A stretch of 64,000 nucleotides of DNA. Source: Novakomyces olei. Its lineage: Eukaryota. The notes under the pieces were generated by a model. It was not told the DNA's origin and made no database searches. It was given only the letters and a program-made list of their open reading frames with translations. Within the stretch, counting starts at the first letter, position 1; each line of letters starts with the position of its first letter. The stretch lies in NCBI GenBank assembly GCA_016906335.1, contig JADEYG010000002.1, positions 372,001 to 436,000 on the forward strand, in the 5' to 3' direction. Shown here in pieces: positions 14,950 through 64,000 of this stretch. The translations under genes were made by a program, and so were the position numbers.

Positions 14950-17900
14950 CTAGTCTACTGCATCAAGACCTGCTCGAGTAAGCATTTGCCGGTAAGTTTG
15001 CAGGAGAGCACGAATCTCTATTATCAAATCCCCTTTCCCGTCCCCAACACTACCGATACCCGCAGCATCGATCGAAGCAGAACCCGTACGAGCAGCATCA
15101 AATCGCTCTAGAGCCCGAAAAGTTGCCCGGGCAACTGCTGTATAAACAGGATCCATTTTACCAGTATTTTCTTCCAGGCTGATATGATGCACGACCCCAG
15201 CAAGGGCAGCGCACAGCACGTATTTCACAAATACTTGTAATACTGTGTGCTGCAGCAGGGTTACTTGCGATCTATGCTGTTGCAGACGTACCCACTTGTC
15301 CAGCAATCCCGCGTTTCTAATATCCCGTGCGCCAGCAATGCTATCAGCAATCCGAGCAACAAGACCCATTTGCACAGTGAAGCGTAAAGCGTCTTGGCCG
15401 CCAATCATTAGCGCCTCCCAGTACAAGGCGCTATTGGTGTTTGCATCATTTTTGCTCTTGCTTTTTAATTTATTATTATTATTTTTATTGATAATATTAT
15501 TATTATTGCCATCATTATTGTTGTCTGCCGGTGACCCGGTAACAAGTGCAGCCGTAAACTGATCAATGTCCTTACAAATCATAGACACAAGGGCGCTTGT
15601 AGTATTTGCCCTCTGCAATTGCTGCAACAGAGGGTTCTTGCCAGTGCTGCTGCTGATAGAGTAAAGCACTGAAAGGCAGAGTGATGCGTACAACTGGCAC
15701 AGTCCTCCTCCACGAAGCACGTCGTCGATCAGGTACCGCAACACTCGGCCGCCCAGACTGGCGAGGATGTGTAGAGTTGCCTGCTCAGACAATTTGTTTG
15801 CAGTTTGAGAAGAAGGGCGGTTCGAGTGGCCATTTTGACGGGACAAGCTATGTGCCATCGAGGCAGTTGCAGCTGTCTTCTCCCCTTTATTGCAGCGGTC
15901 ATTAAAGACAACGAGTGCAAGGTACATTGACCGGTAAACTGCCTCGCGTAGAAAACTGCCTCCAGAGACGAGCACGGTGCCGTAAGCAAGCAATATTTCA
16001 TGCAATACGCGATTAAACCCTCCGGCTCCTTCGTCGTCGCTGGGCAGACGGTCAAAGAAGTCGCGGCCGTGCAACGTCATTTGTGAGCAAATGTCCAAGA
16101 CGGTATTAGCGACAGGAGTACTATCTGTCTGCAGACAGGGCAGTAGCAGGTTGAGCGTCTCAGATACCAGGCTTTCCAGGCCAGTAGGGCTAAAGAGAAA
16201 ACAGCACTCTTCCACGATAATCTCTACCAGCAATGACCAGCGCCGTAGAGTTTCTGCACAAGCGTGCCGGACGCGGATGCTGGAATTGCACTCTATAACC
16301 CTGCCCAGTGTATCGGCAAATGTGGCATTTGCCAGGGACTCTGTATCGGGAAAGGCAAGAGCGTTTCTTTCTTTTTCTTTTATATTCAATTCTTTTATAC
16401 CTCTCTCTTTTATATTTCTCTCTTTTATACTTCTCTCTTTTATACTTCTTTCCTTTGCATCTCTTTGTTTTACACTCCGTTCCTGCCTGGCTTTCTCCCA
16501 CTCTCTGCTCCGTCTTACTTTGAGCAGCCGCTCAATTCTTTCCACGTCCAATACCTCACAGTCGCTGCCGCCTTTTCGCGTGAAATAGTCTGCAAAATTC
16601 TGTAATAGCGCCTCGTCCAGCTCGGGGACTGGGACCCGTAGCACATCGGCAAAATCAAGTATTCTCAGCACTGATGCTGAGCTGTTTGAGATTCCTCCTG
16701 AAGAAGGCCCATTTGCATTTGGCATCGAGGCTCCAACAAGGGCATTTAACAAAGTCACAAGTGGCGAATAAGTCTCGCTCTGTATCATTGCACGGATCCT
16801 TATAGCCAGCAGTTCAAAGAGGTACGCTCTACACAAGAGTTGGTCTTGCAGTGCCCGTGCAAAGGAATAACGGTCAGCTTCGTAAAGCTCTCCGCCATAA
16901 CCACCAGCGCCGATCAACGGCGCTTGCTGGGATAAAAGAGCCAGAAAAATATGGTCATGGGCCCCTACATAGTCCAGTACCTGCATCATACTGGGACCTG
17001 ATTTCAAAAGGGCCACAACAAGGTGCAAGATCTTCGCCTGAATATCCAAGCGGCCACCATCCGTCTCCAAGTACTGCACAAGCACATCGAGTAGGGAGAC
17101 ACCGGACGCCAGTCCAGGAGCGTCCTGGGACCCATCATCATTGTACTTATTGCCGCTATTGCTTTCGCCATTAGAATCGTGCCCACCATCGTTGCCGGAA
17201 TTAAAGGCAGCAAAACCCGTCATGAACCCACCGAGTCTCAGACCCAAAAGGTAGTGCGACGTCACGGGGACGGCGGACGGCTCCTGCAACAACTCTGACA
17301 GCATAAAATCCAAAATTGCATGTACTAACCCTAACCCTGACTCAGTATCAGTTGAATCATCAGGGTTAGGGTTAGTGGCGCCGGTCAGACCAGCGTCTAT
17401 CGCATTAATAAACCCGTAAACGATTCGCTTGGAATCTTCGCTTGTCCGGACAATATTAAGCAGCCGATTGCCGACGAACGAAGTGGTTGTTTCCGAGGCC
17501 GAAGCGCTACGGAACTCGGGAGATCGTCGAATCAGGTCGAGCAGCCTGACTGCCTTTAGAGCAACTCGGGGGTCTGCCTCGTTCCCAACGCACAGAAATA
17601 TCTGGACTAGACACTGTGAGTGGCATAAGAGAAAGGTGAAAGGCGATCTTAGTGGTTTAGCACTATGCTGCTGTTGCTGCCTTTGCGATAAAAATACAGG
17701 CCAGGTAGGCGCTGAAGCACTTCCACTCTCCTGCTCGTCAACCTCCTCCTCCGTGTCTGTTGGCGTATTGCTGATTGCATCCAGTACACGTAAATGCTGA
17801 GGTAACAAATGGGATAGATCGTATATTAAATCGAGCGATAGCTGGCAAAGGCGAGTTGACGTAGTCGAGGCCAGATCCAAAGCTGAACAAGAATGCAAGA

Positions 17901-20507
17901 AAATGCTAAATAAAGCCTCCAGGCTCTGTGCAGACATGAGCATATTGAAAAGGATGGGCGCTGGATGTTGCGAGTAATAGTGTTTAAGAGAGGCAATTTG
18001 TTTGACGACATCAAACCGTTGTTTGCCCGCGTCAGCAATGTACTCCAAGTTATACGATTCGACTATAGTAACAAGGCAGAAAACGATCTCCTGTGCCAAA
18101 CCGAAAAAATTTGTGTCGCTGGATTCGGCTGCGAGCAGGGCGGTATCTGAAAGGATTTGGACAATAAATTTTACATAAACACTGAGCCCGGGATTACGAT
18201 ACTGTGCGCCCAAATTTGCCGGGTAGCAGAGCGGAGATGCTGCTGATTCAGAGGGACGCAGCAACTTGCTCAAAAGAGCAAAAAGTGATCGAGCGTCAGA
18301 ACCGTCTCTGGAGCACAAGAGCCTCAGGTTTTCATACAGTCTTTGCTCCGGTTCAAGTGCTTCTGCTGATCTAATGCTCGAGAGAACCATTGGCGGCAGC
18401 GAGTAAACATCTCGCAGAGGAAAGAAGCAGAGCCAGTGATCAACAAGTCGCCAAATTTCGTTATTATGCTGCTGGTAGCTAGAACTAGAGGCAGCAGCGA
18501 GCAGGAAAAGTAGCTCGGCTTGCAGGTCTGGAGACACGTAGCAGTTTAAGAAATCAACCACTATTTGAACAATCCGCAGTGTTTGATCCTCAATCAAATC
18601 GAGACACTCTGCTTGATTATGAAGCATGATTGAAGCGAGTAAGCGCAAGTACGACTGCAGTACGAGATCAGATTCAGCATCAATTTCAATTTGGTCCGGG
18701 TCCAACAGTCCACCGGTGTTTGCCTGCTCTTGTTTTATAAAAGTTACATAGTACCGTAGGGAATTGGCAATAAACGCCAGCGAGAGTTGGCCAGCTTCAG
18801 CACCACTTGTTAGGCTTGCTGGGGAAGGATTGACCATGGAAAGAAATTCTCTGCAGGCAGCAGAGTTGTCCTGACCCCGACAAAGGCTGGCCAGGAGTAC
18901 AGCATTAGCACAAGTCATACTAGGAGCAGAAAAAGACCGACACCAAGATAAAAAGCCATAGATATCGCTCTCGGGATCCTGCCAAACTTGGCTTACAACC
19001 GACTCTGGACTGCACAAGTAGACGAGTGAGAGAGTGTACAGAAACGTTTCAAGAGCCGGCTCGATCGTTTCCCGTTGGAGTACTTCCGTATACCGCTGAT
19101 TTGATACTATTACATCCTCCTCAATGAGCCTGATTTCTTTCAACACATCCGGCACAAAGCTTATAAAAGCATGCAAAAAGTCCCGCCAGACATCGAAATA
19201 GCAGGTGCAGAATTCAGAGCTTGCTTCCAATTTAGCTGTGTCCTGCTGCTCCGTATTATTGACAGTATTGCTGTAAAATTTGTACCACCAATCTACGGAG
19301 GTCGAGCCGCCGGCAGCACAGGGACTCAGCAGGTACAGATACCTAATAAACCGGAAGAGGAAACCATTCAACAGACTCGTCAGCGCCGGCTGTTCGATTT
19401 GCTTAGAGTACTTCAAGTCAGGGATGTGAGCCATTGTCTGTTTGAGAAAAGCGCTCAGCTCAACCATCCATGAGAGGGCGAGGAGCTCCTTCAGCTCTGG
19501 CGTTTGCCACCTCTGAGCACTGTCCTGTGCAGCGACAAATTTGCTCTGCAAGTGCTTTACTCTTTCCTGTAAAAGAGTGTCAGCGTTTGTACCAGCATCC
19601 ACAATTTTGCCAAAAAAATCTGCCATTGCACGTTTGGGTAAGACGAACAATGCTGGTACAAAATGCACAATGCACGCAGTATCCTTTTGCTCAACAGTAG
19701 CAGCTATCTTTAAAAATTGCTCCATATCACTCTCGTTGAAATCCGTGTACTGGAAAATATCGTAGATAATCAAACTGAGCTGCTCGTGGTGCGACAAGCA
19801 TGAGTTTACCATTAGGGAATATATTTCCTCATAGCTATTGTCTTGCTGACCTACGAGTAAAAGCCGAGCTCTGCGTTGCTCCTCCTGGACCTGCTTCAAC
19901 TGATTTTGTAATAGGCCGAGACTCTCACAGCATTTCTGCACCGTTTCATCACTCGTTAAAGGTTTGGTAACGGAGCAAAAGATTTCACGACACTCACGGG
20001 GCACATCTGGGCTGTAGGACAGACGTACAAGGCTGTAAAATGTATCTAGCACGAATCCGCGCCGAGCATAGAATACGTAAAAGGCCGCCTGTAGCGCCGA
20101 GCGGTCCAGCCGTTGGGCATTTTTTGTGCCCTGCAGGAGAAAATAGGCGGCTATGTCTTCACGCAATTGTAAAGTATCAGCCAGCCTTAGGGTATCATGC
20201 TTGAACTCTTCATTGATCCGGTAGACATCGTCACCAAACTCAATCGTATCTGGACACATGTAAGCATTGTGCAACGCTTTGCCATTTGTATAATTTGATT
20301 CTCTTTCATTCTCATACCTGATGAACGAATGCTGTTGCGGCTCTGCTCGCTCTTGCCCGGATGCACGAGCAGATCAGTCAGTAGTGCAAGCCGCGTGTCC
20401 ACGTACTTTGCACATTGTTCGCTGTACAAAGGATCAAAGTCATGGCGAAACACACTGGAAACAAGCGTGCTCAGAGTCTCAAAGCTCTCCGCACTCCATT
20501 GATCCAT
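14950..20507 (-). CDS. NUP192: Inner-ring nucleoporin Nup192/Nup205 (S. pombe Nup186-like); intron 20317-20250
   Basis: About 1830 aa, helical; family-like segments YRINEEF..LADTLQLRE..AA, YPANLGAQYRNPGLSVYVKF, EDSKRIVYGF, SHYLLG; the GTATGA...CAG intron joins the MDQW exon in frame. Confidence 0.88.
16366..16480 (-). repeat. Coding 15-bp minisatellite (KERSI/KERNI/KERGI/KELNI) in NUP192
   Basis: Plus-strand units resembling TCTTTTATACTTCTC. Confidence 0.88.

Positions 20508-20558: not shown

Positions 20559-20561
<3 letters not shown>

Positions 20562-20621
<60 letters not shown>
20562..20621. repeat. Perfect 60-bp palindromic (AAT)n/(ATT)n microsatellite
   Basis: Read directly; the centre lies between 20591 and 20592. 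Confidence 0.9.
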
Positions 20622-29871: not shown

Positions 29872-32800
29872 TTATTCAGAATTCCACTCGAGTGCGCCAA
29901 TGCCTATCTTTGAGACTTGAGCGTACGAGCTCGCGTTTTGCAGACGCAAAAACGTCAAATCAGGCAGATTCAGTGTTTTATGCTCCGGAGCCGGTCGAGT
30001 CTCGCTCCTTGCTGGAGCCTCGTCGGTAAGAGGCGAAAGAAAAGCGTCTGGTTTCCCAACGAGATCGTCAATACTAAGACTCTCTCCCGGCGAGATCGGT
30101 GTGGGATGGGACGGCGTTACACAGTCCATGTCCACCTCCTTTCGCAAAACTCGGTCCACATCAACAGCGGAGAAGAAGGCAACGCCCTGTGGAACATCGT
30201 CGATGCCTAGTTTCTGGCAGAAAAGAGCACGAACCCAAAGGTTGCTTATCTGCAGGGCCATTGCCACTCTGTACCGATCCTCATCCGCAGTCAGGAACCG
30301 TATTTCGTCGTGGATAGCAATCGACAAACGCGCTTTCAACCCGTACTTTTTTATCAAATAATCCATAGAAACAACGAGCAGGTGCAGGTAATCTACACCG
30401 GAAGACTGGATGGCCCAGTTTGTCCGTGACGTCATGAAATTACGTCCGACTGTACGTGACTGCAGTGCGTTTGTCAGCCGGGCACCCAAGGCAGGGGTAC
30501 GGGGTTCCTTTTGGTAGGCTAATTCTTCCAGTTTATTGAAGACAAAAGACTCTGTCCCGCCGAACCAGAAGCCGTGCTCCCTGTACGATTTCGATTTTTG
30601 ACCCTTGGTGGAGGCATACAGGGCAGAGGCAATTTTCTTGGCCTCTTTTTCCTGGAGCCCAGGTCTCTTTTGCAGCAAAAGCCGCTCCGTAAACTTGAGC
30701 CCGGCTCCGTATATCCGCCCATAGTTGAATATTTTAGCATCGTTCCTGGAAACGCCCAGTATTTTAGCTGTTTGTGAATGCATATCAGTACCCTCTGACT
30801 TTGAGCCCTCGAGCGTCATCCAGCCGAGGGCAGTGGCCCCATGGTGACCAAACTGCGAATCGCCTACGAGGGCAGCAATCCAAAGCTCTTCAGAGTCCAC
30901 ATCCGCTCCGACAAAACTATAATTGGGCGGAGCACGAATCATTGCTTTCAGCTCGGATCCGATTCGGTTCTTTTTCGCATTGCTGGCTGTAAGCCATGTC
31001 TTTTCCACTGCCCTGCGAGTAATTGTGCCCATTACTACCGTCTGTGGCAGTATTATACCCGTGTCCTTATAGTCAGAAGGCTCTTGGCTTTTGCCTACAA
31101 GATGGTGTCCCAACCCAAAGTCAGTGTCCTGTATATTCCACACTGGCATCTGCCGCTGGATACGCTCACGTACTCCTGTCCAATACGTGACAGACATGCT
31201 CATATCCAAGATCTCTGCTGCTTCGGGGTACGCGGATGTGAGCTCTCCGCTCTCAAAGTACCGCATATAATTCTTTCCGATGGGACTCGTGCATCTCTTG
31301 TCCGGCCCGTCCAAGTGGGGCAGCTTGAAGAAATAATGCTCCGTATCCTGATCACGCTCTACGTACTTGAAGCTCTTGTACTGCTCCAGAGCGTTTGGAG
31401 CAGAGGCCCTGTCCACTATAAACCCCCACCCTTGCTTGTCGTCCCACCGCAATGGGTTTCCCATCCAGCTCAGTTTGAGCAGGTAAGGTGTCGCTCGCTG
31501 CCTTAGACTTATACGCAGCTGTGCCGCTTTGCCCTGGCACAGTTGCCTGTACCACTCGGGGAGTCCCGGGAGCCTCTGTGACTTGTGCAGCCGGGTTTCC
31601 CCTGTTTTTTTGTCCACAGTGTACCGTGCAGGGTGAATAGTCCAGTCCAGGCCAGAGAGCCAAGGATCGTGTTGCCACTTTTTTTTGTTTGTATCATCAG
31701 CGGGCAAATACGTGTCAAGTGCCTCCTGCACTAGACGCGTCAGGAGAACATCAATCTTTTGCAGACTCTCCTGGTAAATGTCGCCCGTCCTCCGCAGGAA
31801 ATCGTCCCACTGTCTCGTAGTCGGCAGCAGCAAACTGCCCAATTTTATCATTGCCTCAATCGTTACTGGGTGAGGCGAGTTTGCAATAAACGGCTCCAGC
31901 ACTTTTTGAAATATTTCATGAGTTGCTCCAACGTCCTTTGCACAGTACTTTAGCAGACTGTTGGCATTTTCACAGACTTGCTCCCTTGTAAATGTGCCAA
32001 AGGCATCACGCACCTGTTTGTCCATGCCCTTGTTGCAATAGAAATGATAGAGTTCTGCTAAACTTGCTGTGCTGGTAATACTCAGCCAGTCTGCGTGTTC
32101 CTTGTAAGCAGCATCGGCACCATCAGCCGCTTCTGCTGCCCCTCCATCAACCGAGGCAGCAACAGATTCTGCCTCAAAGTCAGGCTGCTGCCTCGACCAT
32201 TTCTCGTACAGCGGTCTTTGCGCACTGGACATGCCATTAACTGCCACGTGCAGGCTCATTGTGTCTATGAAATAATTTGTGGGCCCAAAGAATCTGTACT
32301 CCTCCTTAACCCTAATCCGATCGTAGCTGACAGCGTGGCCCAGCACGAGCTTGCCTCCGTTGCCCAGCGGGATTAGATGCCTCGGCGACGGGGACTCTTT
32401 AGTTATCCAGGGCGAAATCCAAGCGTAGAAGGCTTCATGAGAGGCAGCTGTGGCCATTACAGAGAACTGGGACTCGTTGTAAAGAGTCTCAGTGTCAAAG
32501 ACCAGCTCATTTTCCAGCGGGCAGACAACACGCTCCGCCTGTTTTGAGTCGGCAGTGTACCTTGTCCAGCCGGACTGCAAAACAAACCGGGACGGCGGTT
32601 CTGCCAAAGGGCCCGACGCTAATCGTCGGGCCCTTTGGATAATTTTGTCACTAAAATCCTGGCTAATGCGTCTAAAATGCTCGTCCAGACAACTGCCTAA
32701 AAGCGGTGGCAGTTTCAAGTCCACTACGGGCGCACGAGCGGCCTTTTTTGATAAAAGATCGTAGCGCCTTAAATGATCTTGGGATATTCGTAATAACTCT

Positions 32801-33057
32801 CGGCTCGGAGCCGGCCGTGGGAGCGGGAACAATTGGCGATGAAGGCCATGACCAATGTACTGAATGCCGACGGCGTTTACACGCTCCTCCTCTTGGCCGC
32901 TGCCGGTCGATAACTTTGGCACTTGCAAACACGATTCTGAAGTTGCAGTCGCCGCGCTCGCTTCCGCCTGTGCAGAATAATAGCGCTTCAATACGACATT
33001 GACGCGTTTTTTAAGCCGAAGTCGGCACCACGAGCATACGCGCTCAGCTTTGAACAT
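29872..33057 (-). CDS. pog1: Mitochondrial DNA polymerase gamma, intronless
   Basis: Exo motifs VFDTE, GHAVSYDR, YCAKDV; Pol motifs GADVDSEE, AKIFNYGRIYGAG, IHDEIR; first ATG at 33057. Confidence 0.96.
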   Translation of the reverse strand: MFKAERVCSWCRLRLKKRVNVVLKRYYSAQAEASAATATSESCLQVPKLSTGSGQEEERVNAVGIQYIGHGLHRQLFPLPRPAPSRELLRISQDHLRRYDLLSKKAARAPVVDLKLPPLLGSCLDEHFRRISQDFSDKIIQRARRLASGPLAEPPSRFVLQSGWTRYTADSKQAERVVCPLENELVFDTETLYNESQFSVMATAASHEAFYAWISPWITKESPSPRHLIPLGNGGKLVLGHAVSYDRIRVKEEYRFFGPTNYFIDTMSLHVAVNGMSSAQRPLYEKWSRQQPDFEAESVAASVDGGAAEAADGADAAYKEHADWLSITSTASLAELYHFYCNKGMDKQVRDAFGTFTREQVCENANSLLKYCAKDVGATHEIFQKVLEPFIANSPHPVTIEAMIKLGSLLLPTTRQWDDFLRRTGDIYQESLQKIDVLLTRLVQEALDTYLPADDTNKKKWQHDPWLSGLDWTIHPARYTVDKKTGETRLHKSQRLPGLPEWYRQLCQGKAAQLRISLRQRATPYLLKLSWMGNPLRWDDKQGWGFIVDRASAPNALEQYKSFKYVERDQDTEHYFFKLPHLDGPDKRCTSPIGKNYMRYFESGELTSAYPEAAEILDMSMSVTYWTGVRERIQRQMPVWNIQDTDFGLGHHLVGKSQEPSDYKDTGIILPQTVVMGTITRRAVEKTWLTASNAKKNRIGSELKAMIRAPPNYSFVGADVDSEELWIAALVGDSQFGHHGATALGWMTLEGSKSEGTDMHSQTAKILGVSRNDAKIFNYGRIYGAGLKFTERLLLQKRPGLQEKEAKKIASALYASTKGQKSKSYREHGFWFGGTESFVFNKLEELAYQKEPRTPALGARLTNALQSRTVGRNFMTSRTNWAIQSSGVDYLHLLVVSMDYLIKKYGLKARLSIAIHDEIRFLTADEDRYRVAMALQISNLWVRALFCQKLGIDDVPQGVAFFSAVDVDRVLRKEVDMDCVTPSHPTPISPGESLSIDDLVGKPDAFLSPLTDEAPARSETRPAPEHKTLNLPDLTFLRLQNASSYAQVSKIGIGALEWNSE

Positions 33058-33174
33058 TATTGATCTTTTCAATTAAACATTTTCGCCTTTCGCGTCTCGA
33101 TTTGTCGGCGCTGCTTTAGTGCTGTTTAATTTGCATCTAGCATTGCTTGGTCAGTTTGGTTACTAAATCCGCTA

Positions 33175-51700: not shown

Positions 51701-52056
51701 GCTTTTACTTTCTCCCCTTTTTTTTTAATCATTCCTCTCTTTTTCGAAAATTGCTATAGGCTTCCGTTCGCTAGTTCGCCGGCGGTGTCGTGTGTTACTG
51801 TCGTCTGTCGCGGGATTCTGATTTGCACTAGAGCATTAAGCAAGCAAGCCAAAAAGCCGGCTGGATCGACAAGCCCAGCAAAGCCGAAAGCCAGGCACCG
51901 AGTCTGCCAACCGCAAAGGCTGAATCGCACACAATTTTATAAAATTTGCCTCGAATTAGGGACGGGTATAGCAATTATCGGGACAGCCAAAGCAAAAAGG
52001 GAGTAAGAGAACAGAGGCTGCTAAAGTCTCAGACTCGTACTTTTCCGCGTCGGTAA

Positions 52057-57638: not shown

Positions 57639-59351
57639 CTATTTAAAGACCTTGCCGTCAGCAAATGGCCACGTTTTGCCATCTCGCTGCAAATCTTTGT
57701 CCCAAGCCCAGGAATCTTCCAGAAACTCTTTATCTGCGGCATTGCTGATGTCAAGCGGCTTGAAGTCATAAGATTCCCAGTCTGGCGCAACATCAAAGGC
57801 AGGTGCAAAGTCTTTACCTTTGATTACAAAGGCACCAGTGATGAGGTTATTGTTGTTTTCGCCGTAGACTGCCAGACAGCCAAAGATGAACTTGCGAGAT
57901 GCCTCCAGCCTTTGGAAGAACCCCCCAATCAGGTTGTTGGACTGGAAAGTCAGACCCAGCTCATCATTGTATTTGTAATCAACTTGCCACAGAGAATAGT
58001 GGTCCTTATCAAAGTGCTCGTAAAACCAATTAAGAGCATCGGGGCGAGTATCAAGGTTCGAGTATGCACGCTTCCAATCGTCCAAAACAAGTGAACCGTT
58101 CGAAAGCTCTGCAAGAGGGTGCTTTGGCTTGGGAGCAGGCTTTGGCTCTTCCTCCTCGGCTGCAGGAGCTTCTTTTGCTTTAGGCGCTTTTTCTTTAGCA
58201 GCACCTCCAGTCTGCTTAGGCTTAGCTGTCGCCTCAGTCTGTTTAGGCTTAGTAGCATCCTTCTTCTCCTTCTTAGCGGGCTCTGGAGTCTTTTCAACCA
58301 AAACTAATTCGCCAACTATTTCCGAGAATCGGGCCTGTCCATAGACAGTGCGGAACCATCGCATGACATTAGGATATTTTTGGCGAATCTCAGGACCTAA
58401 AAACTCCTTGAAGAAACGCACCAAGAGACCTGCTACAAAAGCATCAGCCAGTGTAAGACGCTCAGACACGAGGAAAGTACGGCTGAGCAGAGCGAGTTCG
58501 AGATTGTTCAGTGCTTTGTGAGTGTTGACAATAGCCTTGTCAACATTAGGCTTCAAATATGGGTCAAGACCAACTGTAGGACGCCACCAGCCAGCGCAAG
58601 CAGCTGCAAGACTGCTGGTACCGAAAGAGCACCATGAGAGCACACTTGCGTATTCCTGCTTTGTCTTGCCAAGTAAGGTGGTATGGGGATCCTGGCTTGC
58701 CACTTCACGATGAAAAGTTAGTGATTTCAACGATAATCAACAATGGAGAGAGAAAGAAAAAGTAGTTGTGTTTGAATGCAGAATGAAAAACATAAATTAA
58801 GTTTAGCTTTTAGTTTATTCAGATTCAACTTTATCAACAATAGTCTTCAGACAGGGATAACTGATGATAAAATTTTTCATCATTTCAGAGCTAAACGAAA
58901 TGCAGCAAAGCAGTAAAGAGACCCTCATCGATTCAAGCTAAATAGCAAATCATTGCTTTTAGATAAATAGCTCCCAACAGTAAAAGTGAAGGTATTGTGA
59001 AAGTCCAGCACAAAAAAATCTTCAGGCCCAAAGGACCTCAATTTCACCTTGAAGTGAAGATATGCAAATTCTCACTTACGGTAAACGGCTATGGCCAGAC
59101 ATTCAGTCAATGCAAAGCCGTCAGCGCCAACAAAAGCCGGAATCTGTCGCATTGGGAACTTGAGTCCATATTCGGCAGGGATATCATTAGACACGGTCTC
59201 CACAAGTTTGACGTCGAGCTTGTTTTCACGAATTACATAAAGCAGGGCTAGAAAAAAATACTTAGAATATGGACTACATTTGAATGCCAAATGATGACTT
59301 ACGCACTGAGCGTGTATTTTTTGCGCTGCCATATAGAGTGCCGAACGACAT
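57639..59351 (-). CDS. TEF4: Elongation factor EF1B-gamma; introns 59302-59248 and 59079-58703
   Basis: GST-like N-domain (KFPMRQIPAFVGADGFALTE), Lys/Ala linker, C-domain KPKHPL..LDDWKRAYSN..FQSNNLIGGFFQRL..APDWESY. Confidence 0.97.
58816..58888 (-). ncRNA. snR38: Intronic box C/D snoRNA, snR38-like
   Basis: Box C ATGATGA 58883-58877; guide CAGTTATCCCTGT 58863-58851, complementary to LSU rRNA ACAGGGATAACTG; D' CTGA 58850-58847; D CTGA 58822-58819; lies in EF1B-gamma intron 2, matching the yeast TEF4 host. Confidence 0.9.
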
Positions 59352-60907: not shown

Positions 60908-62020
60908 ATGACGGAGGAGCAAAAGATTGTTCCCTCAAATGAAGGGCTAGAGGCCGAGGCTCTCAAACAAGTTGGTATGCATGAAACAAAAGTTCCTTAT
61001 CCCCTTAAAGTTACTAATCGTCTTTTCAAAGAATTTTATTTTAGCGATTCGAATTTGCCTCATGACAAATTTCTTTGGACAGCGACATCAAAAAATCATG
61101 GCTGGATACCAATTGCATCACTGGCAAGCTTCAAGAGAATGCGACGCTTTGGAGGTGACCTTAAGTTCATCGCGTCTGCGTTGCGCAAAAGCCCCGACCT
61201 TTTGGAAGTCGATGCCAAAGGTGAAAAAGTTCGCCGGCGTACGCCCCTACTGCATCCTGCTGAACAAAAGAAGCTTATACAGCGAGGTGAAGCAGTAGCG
61301 CCTGTAGATCGTAGCGTCTATCTTAAAGGGTTTTCAGTCTTGGATCCTGAGCCTGAGGATTATCAGATCACGCTCGAAAAATGGATCAGTAAACTGGGTG
61401 AACGTCTTAGCCTAGGAAAGATTAATTTGGTGCGTATGAGACGCGATGATAAAAAGGGATTCAAGGGATCCTTATTTGTTGAGTTTTCGAACCAGGATGA
61501 TCAACGGAAGTTCTTAGAGTCTGGTCCTTATTTTTATAAGAATGGAATTCAAGCAGAGGCTGAACACAAATCTTCAGCTGAAAACGCTGAACAAATTAAT
61601 GAACTGAGCACATCTTTGGATGGCGATAAAGGTTATCAAGATAATCAAGCATTTCAAACAGAAGATACTAGAGCCGAGAAAGAGGCTGGAGACGTGAGCG
61701 TCGAAGATAAAGAGCAAAATGTTACAATTACCGTAAATACGTCTGAACAAAAGTCCGCCATCACTACTGAAAACAAACCGAGCGACAAGGAAGAGCAGCC
61801 GCTCTTATTGATGTCAAAGAAGGCCTATGTGGATATGAAGGCTGAGGAGTATTCCAAGAACCCCGACAAGCCGGGCCGCAAACCAAACTTCAACGCATAC
61901 AGAGAAATGTCACAGCGAAAGAAACATAAATCAAAGGCACAAGGCGAGGCTGCCAATAATACCTCAAAGAAGCGGAAACGGGAAGCGGAAGAAGTTTCTG
62001 AACAAGATGTAAAAAAGTGA
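60908..62020 (+). CDS. LHP1: La protein (La motif plus RRM); in-frame intron 60975-61031
   Basis: Spliced [55 protein letters not shown]. Confidence 0.93.
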
Positions 62021-62883
62021 CTGTTCTCAATCTTTTAGTCCTTGTTCGGCCTGTCTTTAATAGAAAAATATTACGTGTCGGTTTAATTCTAGGCATATTT
62101 CTGATAATTAAGACCAATAAAAGATCAGCGTTTGATTTCTAGCTACTAATAGAGTCACGGCACGAAATAAAGGAACTTCGTCTTCGAAATTTACATTCTA
62201 TTTGTTGATGTCTTCCATTCATTAAGACTTTTATTTCTGCGGAATGCGCTTCACAAGATTGTTTCCTGAGAAGCACTTTTTGTAATATCAGAGATTCAGC
62301 CGTAATAATATTGATAAAGTCTCCAGAGATGTATGAGGTACTCATTTCTGAAAAGCCCAGCCTTTATTTTCAATGATGCCTGACCGGAGACAGAACGAAA
62401 CTAAGGGAGATACCAATTGCTTTAATTAATTGATAGCAAAGCCAAATAGATTATTTCAACAAATGATGAAGCCACAATGCCATGGATTCCAATGATATAA
62501 ATAAAAGAGGCCAATCTATATCATATCAATTTGCTCGTTGACAAAAAAAGTGAATTCAGGGAAAGTGAGCGCTGTATATTTGGATCGCAATTTAAAGGGA
62601 TGCGTATATAAACAGGTTTGGGATGGGATGCAGAGAAATTTCCAGATATAAATATAGTCTAAGGGTGCATTATATCAAAATCTAATAGACTAATATTATT
62701 ATTACTATTATTATGTTAGTGGTCAATTCTTATCGCACTTCTAAGAGTATTAGGAATCGTAATTGAAATCGGTGATTGTAATTAAGAAGGCGGCCACCAG
62801 GGCGCCGTAACAAATACTCGTAGTAAAACAGTTAATAACTCTGGCTTTCAAAAGCGGCGGAAGGCCGGCCTTTTATAGCCTTT

Positions 62884-63060
62884 AAGACAAAGAACAAAGA
62901 ACAAAGAACAAAGAACAAAGAACAAAGAACAAAGAACAAAGACAAGGACAGAGAGCGAAGGCCCATACAATATTTCCCTTTTTAGAAACTACCTCTACAA
63001 GGGAGGTAAGGGGCCCCATAGTCTTATATGTTATTCTTAGTCTTATTCTTATTCTTATTC

Positions 63061-63108
<48 letters not shown>
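62884..63108. repeat. (AGAACAA)n heptamer array, about 8 copies, then (TTATTC)n/(ATT)n microsatellite
   Basis: Read directly at 62884-62945 and 63030-63108. Confidence 0.9.
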
Positions 63109-63109
<1 letters not shown>

Positions 63110-63166
63110 GTAAGTATCCACCGTAAACTACATCTGAATCGTTCCCTTGTAGACCAAATAGGTAAT

Positions 63167-63961
63167 TGTAAGGTGGCCCTTAGAGGGGAGCACCGCGGTG
63201 TAAACTCGCGTGTCGCTACAGGCGAACACGGACTGTCCTTTGCGAGACCGCTCGACAAAGGAAGTTCAATCGGGTACCGCGCGAAGCGAGTACCGAGAAA
63301 CGGGAACGTAGACTTGCGCCCGGCGCAAGAACTAAGGAAAAGGAAAAGGACGTTGTCCTTGAAAAGGCGACGGCGCTTCTCTAAAGCTTACCTGCTACAA
63401 GGTTATGTAGCAACTTTGAGATTATAAGCCCGTGGAGAGAGTTCTCTCCATGGGCGACTATGTAGACTATCCTATGAGGCTTAGCGGCTCGCTTAGCCAC
63501 TTCGCGGCCTAAGCCTCATCCCACCACGATCTCAATGCGATGGTCCCAGACCATCCGCATTGGGAAAGCGGTGGCGAGCTATGAACTCTATGGATCGATC
63601 TATCTAGCTTCGTAGCGATGCGCGATCGCTACTACTACTGTCATGCGCCGCGACGTGCCTACGTCGCGCGGGCATGGACGTGGACCTGCTTCGCGCGAGC
63701 CAGGTCCAACCTGCTCGCGAGCTAGGCCACTTACGCGCTTCGCGCGAGTAATGTCCAACATTACCTCGCGCGAGCTATTTAGATCTATCTAGCCTGAAGT
63801 CATCGCCTTTGGCGCTACAGGACTTCAGGCGTCGTTCGCTGTCGTGGTTCACGCGAGGCGGGGATCATGACACTATCCCCCCTTTCTAGGGCGAGGTCTC
63901 CGCGCCTATGAAAACCACGTTAGCTACTAGACTGCTATATAAGTGCGCTTTCGGCAATAAA
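63167..63961 (+). other. GC-rich non-coding array of about 15 consecutive hairpins (structured RNA or LTR-like element, unassigned)
   Basis: Hand-paired stems include 63236-63262, 63428-63455, 63474-63519, 63530-63565 and 63792-63830; no credible ORF. Confidence 0.8.
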
Positions 63962-64000
63962 ACTATCTAAGTAATATAAAGTAATTTGCGGATGCAAAAC

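Follow-up and report, generated by a model that had tools for sequence, protein, structure and literature searches.

What is the block of closely packed hairpins that lies near the right end of a stretch of DNA from Novakomyces olei, and do these hairpins speak of a folded RNA or of the DNA itself? The stretch, referred to here as the window, comprises 64,000 nt (assembly GCA_016906335.1, contig JADEYG010000002.1, positions 372,001-436,000 of the forward strand) and is fungal nuclear DNA carrying long and mostly uninterrupted ORFs for housekeeping proteins. The Pfam names found among these ORFs are Tel1-type TAN, PI3/PI4 kinase, Nup192, mitochondrial DNA polymerase and EF-Tu, together with EF1-gamma, ribosomal S9 and a La-domain protein; no transposon domain was detected in the 15 long ORFs of the window that were scanned. 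The gene for the La-domain protein, the last one in the window, ends at 62020, and is followed by a 1.1 kb AT-rich spacer with microsatellites that extends up to the start of the block at 63167. Since housekeeping genes free of transposon domains continue up to 62020, the block is situated at the end of a gene block. An earlier note on this DNA, made from its letters, had described an abrupt switch from AT-rich DNA to a hairpin block, and the base composition bears this out: G+C rises from 0.34 (62021-63166) to 0.56 (63167-63930). The features of the block and of its edges are collected in Table 1. Two other repeats are present in the spacer: the perfect 11-nt inverted words TCTACAAGGGA / TCCCTTGTAGA, at 62994-63004 and 63143-63153, flank the (ATT)n microsatellite, and a 21-nt word ending in ATTATTATGT(T/A)AGT occurs at 62700 and again at 63095 (90% alike).

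Table 1. Coordinates, in the window, of the hairpin block, its hairpins and duplicated parts, and the features next to its edges
Feature	Position	Strand	Remarks
(ATT)n-type microsatellite	63022..63109	.	57 nt left of the block
GC-rich hairpin-dense block	63167..63930	.	G+C 0.56; CpG o/e about 1.28-1.29; first letters TGTAAG
Hairpin, 11 pairs	63236..63262	.	
17-nt palindrome / hairpin, 7 pairs	63313..63329	.	
Hairpin, 7 pairs	63393..63412	.	
Hairpin, 12 pairs	63428..63455	.	one G.T wobble on +
Hairpin, 11-bp perfect outer stem	63474..63519	.	nested inner stem
Outer extension of hairpin 63530..63565	63521-63574		one A.C, a wobble on -
Hairpin, 16 pairs	63530..63565	.	one bulge; one T.G wobble on +
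Internal duplication, first copy	63574..63733	+	about 190 nt, old; holds GATCTATCTAGC at 63597
Hairpin, 8 pairs	63612..63632	.	
Hairpin, 8 pairs	63649..63668	.	
Hairpin, 8-bp outer stem	63681..63708	.	CGCGCGAG core
Hairpin, 9-bp outer stem TCGCGCGAG/CTCGCGCGA	63740..63773	.	nested inner stem
Internal duplication, second copy	63770..63922	+	holds GATCTATCTAGC at 63782
Hairpin, 10-bp outer stem	63792..63830	.	nested inner stem
7-bp stem CGTGGTT/AACCACG	63843..63919	.	closes a small multibranch
TATATAAG, canonical TATA-box word	63936..63943	+	points rightwards out of the window; putative function
AATAAA word	63956..63961	+	13 nt past the TATA word; putative function

The hairpins are real features of the sequence and exceed what its dinucleotides would yield. 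All 13 arm pairs quoted in the earlier note were recovered where it had placed them, 11 as exact reverse complements and two with one G.T wobble each. When perfect hairpins are counted with a stem of at least 8 and a loop of 2-30, taking 200 dinucleotide shuffles as the null, the block contains 7, against a shuffle mean of 0.42 (sd 0.61, max 3). The whole window holds 81 such hairpins, 29 of which fall in two zones dominated by AT microsatellites; outside the block and these two zones there are 45 in about 63 kb, a few of them likewise microsatellite-like. The 11 local hairpins of the block amount to 127 pairs, only 3 of which are G-U. Isolated palindromes are also observed in other parts of the window, such as a perfect 15-bp hairpin (32604-32638, stem 73% G+C, loop 5) inside the mitochondrial DNA polymerase ORF (29872-33072, -), or a microsatellite at 20559-20621, in the spacer that separates the Nup192 gene from the Tel1-type one, which changes from (ATA)n to (TAT)n at its centre and so forms a perfect palindrome with arms of up to 30 bp.

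Comparison of the RNA MFE of each strand with shuffles, a check put forward in the earlier note, shows that the block folds better than shuffled sequence on both of them: -354.8 kcal/mol on the + strand (z -10.6 with 20 shuffles, -9.8 with 100) and -337.5 kcal/mol on the - strand (z -9.2 with 20 shuffles, -8.2 with 100). Relative to a background regression on G+C from 166 windows of 764 nt, it deviates by -5.7 SD on + and -4.0 SD on -, more than any other part of the window; the next most extreme is an AT microsatellite at 32853 (-2.8 SD on +, -3.7 SD on -), beyond which the block lies just slightly on the - strand. The MFE and centroid structures are concordant for most local hairpins, and in both of them the ends of the block pair with each other (about 63205-63233 with 63830-63857), closing a multibranch.

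On the other hand, strong folding does not by itself point to one strand. The earlier note had seen a signature of folding on the + strand, since several imperfect pairs were read as G-U on + and as A-C on -, and had proposed selection on a single-stranded + molecule; neither the wobbles nor the energy proved to be biased between strands. The MFE structures of both strands have 146 pairs in common. Among wobbles with shared pairs on both sides, two are on + (63432/63451 and 63532/63563) and one is on - (63526/63569); when a shared pair on one side is enough, the count is two on + vs two on -, and G-U pairs total 17 on + vs 13 on -. The MFE difference between strands (17.3 kcal/mol) is reached by 28 of the 82 non-overlapping background windows (sd 20.2). 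Given this lack of strand bias in both wobbles and energy, the signal is one of DNA palindromes, silent on which strand, if either, serves as RNA, and the proposed selection on a + molecule is left unsupported. The folding of these DNA palindromes is about the same whichever strand is taken. In this sense, a very strong folding z-score for one strand does not constitute RNA evidence unless the opposite strand and background windows serve as controls.

These results bear directly on whether the block could be a gene for a novel long structured ncRNA, transcribed from one strand, in which the hairpins would be kept by selection on the RNA. The very strong folding z-scores and the agreement between MFE and centroid on most local hairpins are what such a gene would be expected to give, and a slight additional pointer is found in the + strand of the block, which has no TTTT (about 1.8 expected by chance) and four AAAA runs. 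We nevertheless consider it quite unlikely, as wobbles and energy are not strand-biased, Rfam gives no match to E 10, the telomere template word is lacking, the sole canonical TATA word stands after the block and not before it, and no homologue was found in which covariation could be followed. The known classes of ncRNA were rejected on the same searches, as neither gathering scores nor an E of up to 10 gave a real match. The earlier note had failed to match the cores of RNase P/MRP, SRP, snRNA, introns and telomerase, and Rfam 15 agrees, with no match to them. At E up to 10, the region 62500-64000 gave four matches, which score 14-21 bits against models of bacterial sRNA or snoRNA, far below threshold, and none to ribozyme families, hammerhead included. 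Telomerase RNA was rejected because neither CCCTAA nor TTAGGG is present in 63167-63930; CCCTAA has 23 matches in the window on both strands, the last at 51956. Likewise, a tRNA or SINE origin was rejected, as the window contains no tRNA genes.

Two further observations concern other parts of the window. The only match in the whole window at Rfam 15 gathering scores is a box C/D snoRNA (snoR38, 46.7 bits for a gathering score of 45) at 58812-58891 on the - strand, just upstream of the EF1-gamma ORF (57639-58730, -), and probably situated in an intron or the leader of that gene. Inside the long ORF with a Nup192 domain (14950-20274, -), two telomere-type units (ACTAACCCTAACCCTGA ... TCAGGGTTAGGGTTAGT) make up the arms of a perfect 17-bp inverted repeat at 17324-17376.

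If the hairpins belong to the DNA, their history can be approached through the internal repeats of the block. CGCGCGAG is present 3 times and GATCTATCTAGC twice, the latter as a 12-mer shared by the two copies of the internal duplication, past which each unit has a different hairpin. Once aligned, the copies show 107 matches, 27 mismatches and 45 gap letters, being 60% alike over aligned columns; the alignment score of 49 compares with 25.4 +/- 5.2 for shuffles (max 46). Because the duplicate units are only 60% alike and yet the hairpin arms are near-perfect, the arms were formed or renewed later than the duplication. The same comparison is an argument for a neutral origin, according to which the block would be a fast-evolving, non-coding and palindrome-rich accessory spacer, where template switching during replication makes and refreshes hairpins that have no function. 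Template switching is a published source of hairpins (10.1101/2021.04.15.439925; PMC5453318; PMC8604942), and the symmetry of the hairpins between strands, the contrast between arms (3 G-U in 127 pairs) and duplicate copies, which implies arms younger than the duplication or recopied, and some loops that repeat parts of their own stem, as in the hairpin at 63474-63519, all fit with it. Such a spacer would however leave the G+C jump, the foreign dinucleotides and the TATA word at the edge unexplained, and the other spacers of the window have no such excess of hairpins once microsatellites are set aside; we thus regard this neutral origin as unlikely, while granting it a real chance.

The dinucleotides set the block apart from the rest of the window. 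Observed/expected ratios in the block are 0.65 for CpA, 0.80 for TpG, 1.25 for TpA and 1.29 for CpG, compared with 1.13, 1.07, 0.80 and 0.97, respectively, in the first 62 kb, and the left flank is host-like in composition. A RIP-type composite index of 0.56 places the block beyond all of the 327 background windows (327/327; mean -0.46, max 0.39; z 3.6). RIP is commonly called where TpA/ApT is above 0.89 and (CpA+TpG)/(ApC+GpT) is below 1.03, and the block, with values of 1.39 and 0.83, lies on the RIP side of both thresholds while its G+C is still 0.56. The composition of the block is therefore foreign to the unique DNA of the host and of the kind seen in repeat-derived DNA, although the RIP-type index could instead reflect the motif content of the palindromes and not a history as a repeat. 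The only other clearly positive RIP-type index in the window (0.39 at 1147) belongs to the region 1147-1900, which includes a tandem of CCCTAACCCTAA at 1859-1870.

No coding capacity and no relatives of the block were found in the material covered. There is no ORF in the block: the longest stop-to-stop frame touching it has 128 aa under the standard code and is partly microsatellite, and under code 4 (mitochondrial) no frame in it is longer than 128 aa, so that a coding remnant was rejected on both code 1 and code 4. Within the window there is no second copy, the best other BLASTN match being 27 nt long (81%, E 2). A decayed or RIP-mutated copy in the left flank was rejected as well, as the best purine/pyrimidine diagonal scored 47/60 vs 46-47/60 in six control stretches. 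A distant blastn search of plasmids and phages gave no match to the block, and a bacterial, plasmid or phage origin was rejected on that ground. Pattern scans of metagenomes returned 6 loci, which by BLASTN have no more than 17 nt in common with it and are taken as chance palindromes; those of viral contigs returned 0, 1 and 0 loci, the single one sharing 10-nt arms only. In an index of sequencing runs, 3 rows from 2 studies contain at least half of the words of the block (0.93, 0.84 and 0.73), one of them possibly being the source of the window, so that they lend no independent support. None of these is an RNA run, and the remaining rows, all at a share of 0.00, do not speak for absence.

The block could also come from some other high-copy spacer, either at the border of an intergenic spacer of the rDNA or as hairpin-bearing mitochondrial DNA copied into the nucleus. 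Spacers of rDNA do contain subrepeats, hairpins rich in G+C and a start word resembling TATA, and the left flank contains, at 62780-62870, AT-rich DNA with small G+C hairpins. Against these likenesses, Rfam matches neither rRNA nor 5S anywhere in the window, a G+C of 56% would be high in the mitochondrial DNA of a fungus, which makes a NUMT origin unlikely, and there is no ORF under the mitochondrial code. We consequently judge a high-copy spacer of either kind to be highly unlikely.

The right edge of the block offers signals of a different nature. The block ends 6 nt before TATATAAG, and this word and the AATAAA that follows it would together form the layout of promoter and poly(A) signal expected in an LTR, as far as the letters can tell; both are present as words only (63936 and 63956, +). 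Of the words expected at LTR ends, TGTAAG is found at 63167 and a second time at 63109, abutting the (ATT)n microsatellite, and its inversion, CTTACA, is absent from 63000-64000, which would place a 3' end, if there is one, outside the window. When 9 TG starts were paired with 8 CA ends, none of the TG...CA combinations in the window had a target duplication of 5-6 bp, and the test gave two 4-bp matches only, both of them inside the block. Two complete elements were rejected on these grounds, a complete solo LTR in the window for lack of a target duplication, and a MITE or foldback DNA transposon because no inverted repeat joins the block edges; the nearest one, an 8-mer at 63205/63850, falls short of the block ends by about 40-80 nt.

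A TATA word pointing rightwards would also suit a regulatory region lying upstream of an ordinary host gene that starts past base 64000, in which the palindromes would be putative sites for dimeric factors. Repetition within the block is in keeping with it, as TCGCGCGA occurs 3 times and a 16-nt family has 6 copies, mostly 22-27 nt apart. However, stems of 8-16 bp with loops of up to 24 nt exceed the usual factor sites, and the composition is unlike that of the other spacers of the host, and we find such a regulatory region very doubtful.

Our leading reading, held tentatively and with less than even confidence, takes the block for the promoter-side (U3-like) portion of an LTR retrotransposon's terminal repeat, or for the end of some other mobile element, running off the window. 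A mobile-element end would account for the sharp boundary, the subrepeats and the foreign composition, for the words TATA and AATAAA near the right end of the block, and also for the lack of any coding or RNA-family signal and for the position where the gene block ends. The earlier note had listed a structured mobile element among its candidates; the mobile element stands as the best reading, on the indirect support of the RIP-like composition and of the TATA word at the edge, while the part that tied it to selection on a + single-stranded RNA does not. That the block belongs to a mobile element, which way transcription would run and what the hairpins might do are alike inferred from sequence. 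Against a mobile-element end, there is no copy elsewhere in the 64-kb window, and dense hairpins are, to our knowledge, no recognised LTR feature; nothing on point was found in the literature on hairpin-rich LTRs.

Should the block be a mobile-element end, the element would start at 63167, or possibly at 63109, and extend past the right end of the window, with transcription putatively starting some tens of bases past TATATAAG and proceeding rightwards into the element. The hairpins would be palindromes at the DNA level and not a strand-specific RNA fold, and may have arisen by local inverted copying, through template switching in reverse transcription or in replication, to which one tandem duplication of about 190 nt would also have contributed. 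Likeness between arms might then be kept by continued recopying from arm to arm, or by their serving as paired half-sites of dimeric DNA-binding regulators. If the same repeat were read at the other end of the element, the hairpins could act there as a structured 3' UTR. An end of this type would be of an ordinary kind, yet would show with unusual clarity a terminal repeat made up almost wholly of distinct, near-perfect palindromes, and would bear on the evolution of terminal repeats, by inverted copying in reverse transcription, and on the regulation of the elements. Going further, the block may be imagined as a self-contained module of structured RNA, present in the terminal repeats of the retrotransposons of this fungus or parasitic on them, with a core of about 650 nt whose paired ends close it and about 12 hairpins that would be kept as such while their sequences drift. 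Such a module is a long shot in our estimation; if true, it could represent a platform for packaging or dimerisation, give rise to small RNAs, or be a counterpart of retrozymes that has no ribozyme.

Among known systems, retrozymes and viroid-like circular RNAs resemble the block in its predicted fold, which is closed, multibranched, about 650 nt long and paired at its ends; unlike them, the block has no ribozyme match to E 10, no strand bias, and no tandem or LTR-flanked copies. As to LTRs, we know of no description in which some 12 distinct hairpins per block are a trait, and the block differs from an LTR U3 in that a second copy, a target duplication, a primer-binding site and gag/pol are all missing from the window, with no sequence likeness to any element. 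Hairpins made by template switching share with those of the block the near-perfect inverted repeats, the short loops and the symmetry between strands, and the better match of the arms of the block than of the nearby direct duplicates agrees with that origin (10.1101/2021.04.15.439925; PMC5453318); template switching is described as scattered single events, whereas the block would need about 12 in 760 nt of compositionally foreign DNA. With the U3 of fungal Ty3/gypsy and Ty1/copia LTRs, such as those of the Boty-like elements of Botrytis (PMC8365987), the block has in common that it is non-coding, several hundred bases long and starts with TG, and that it contains internal subrepeats, is followed by a TATA word and AATAAA, and has a composition unlike that of its host.
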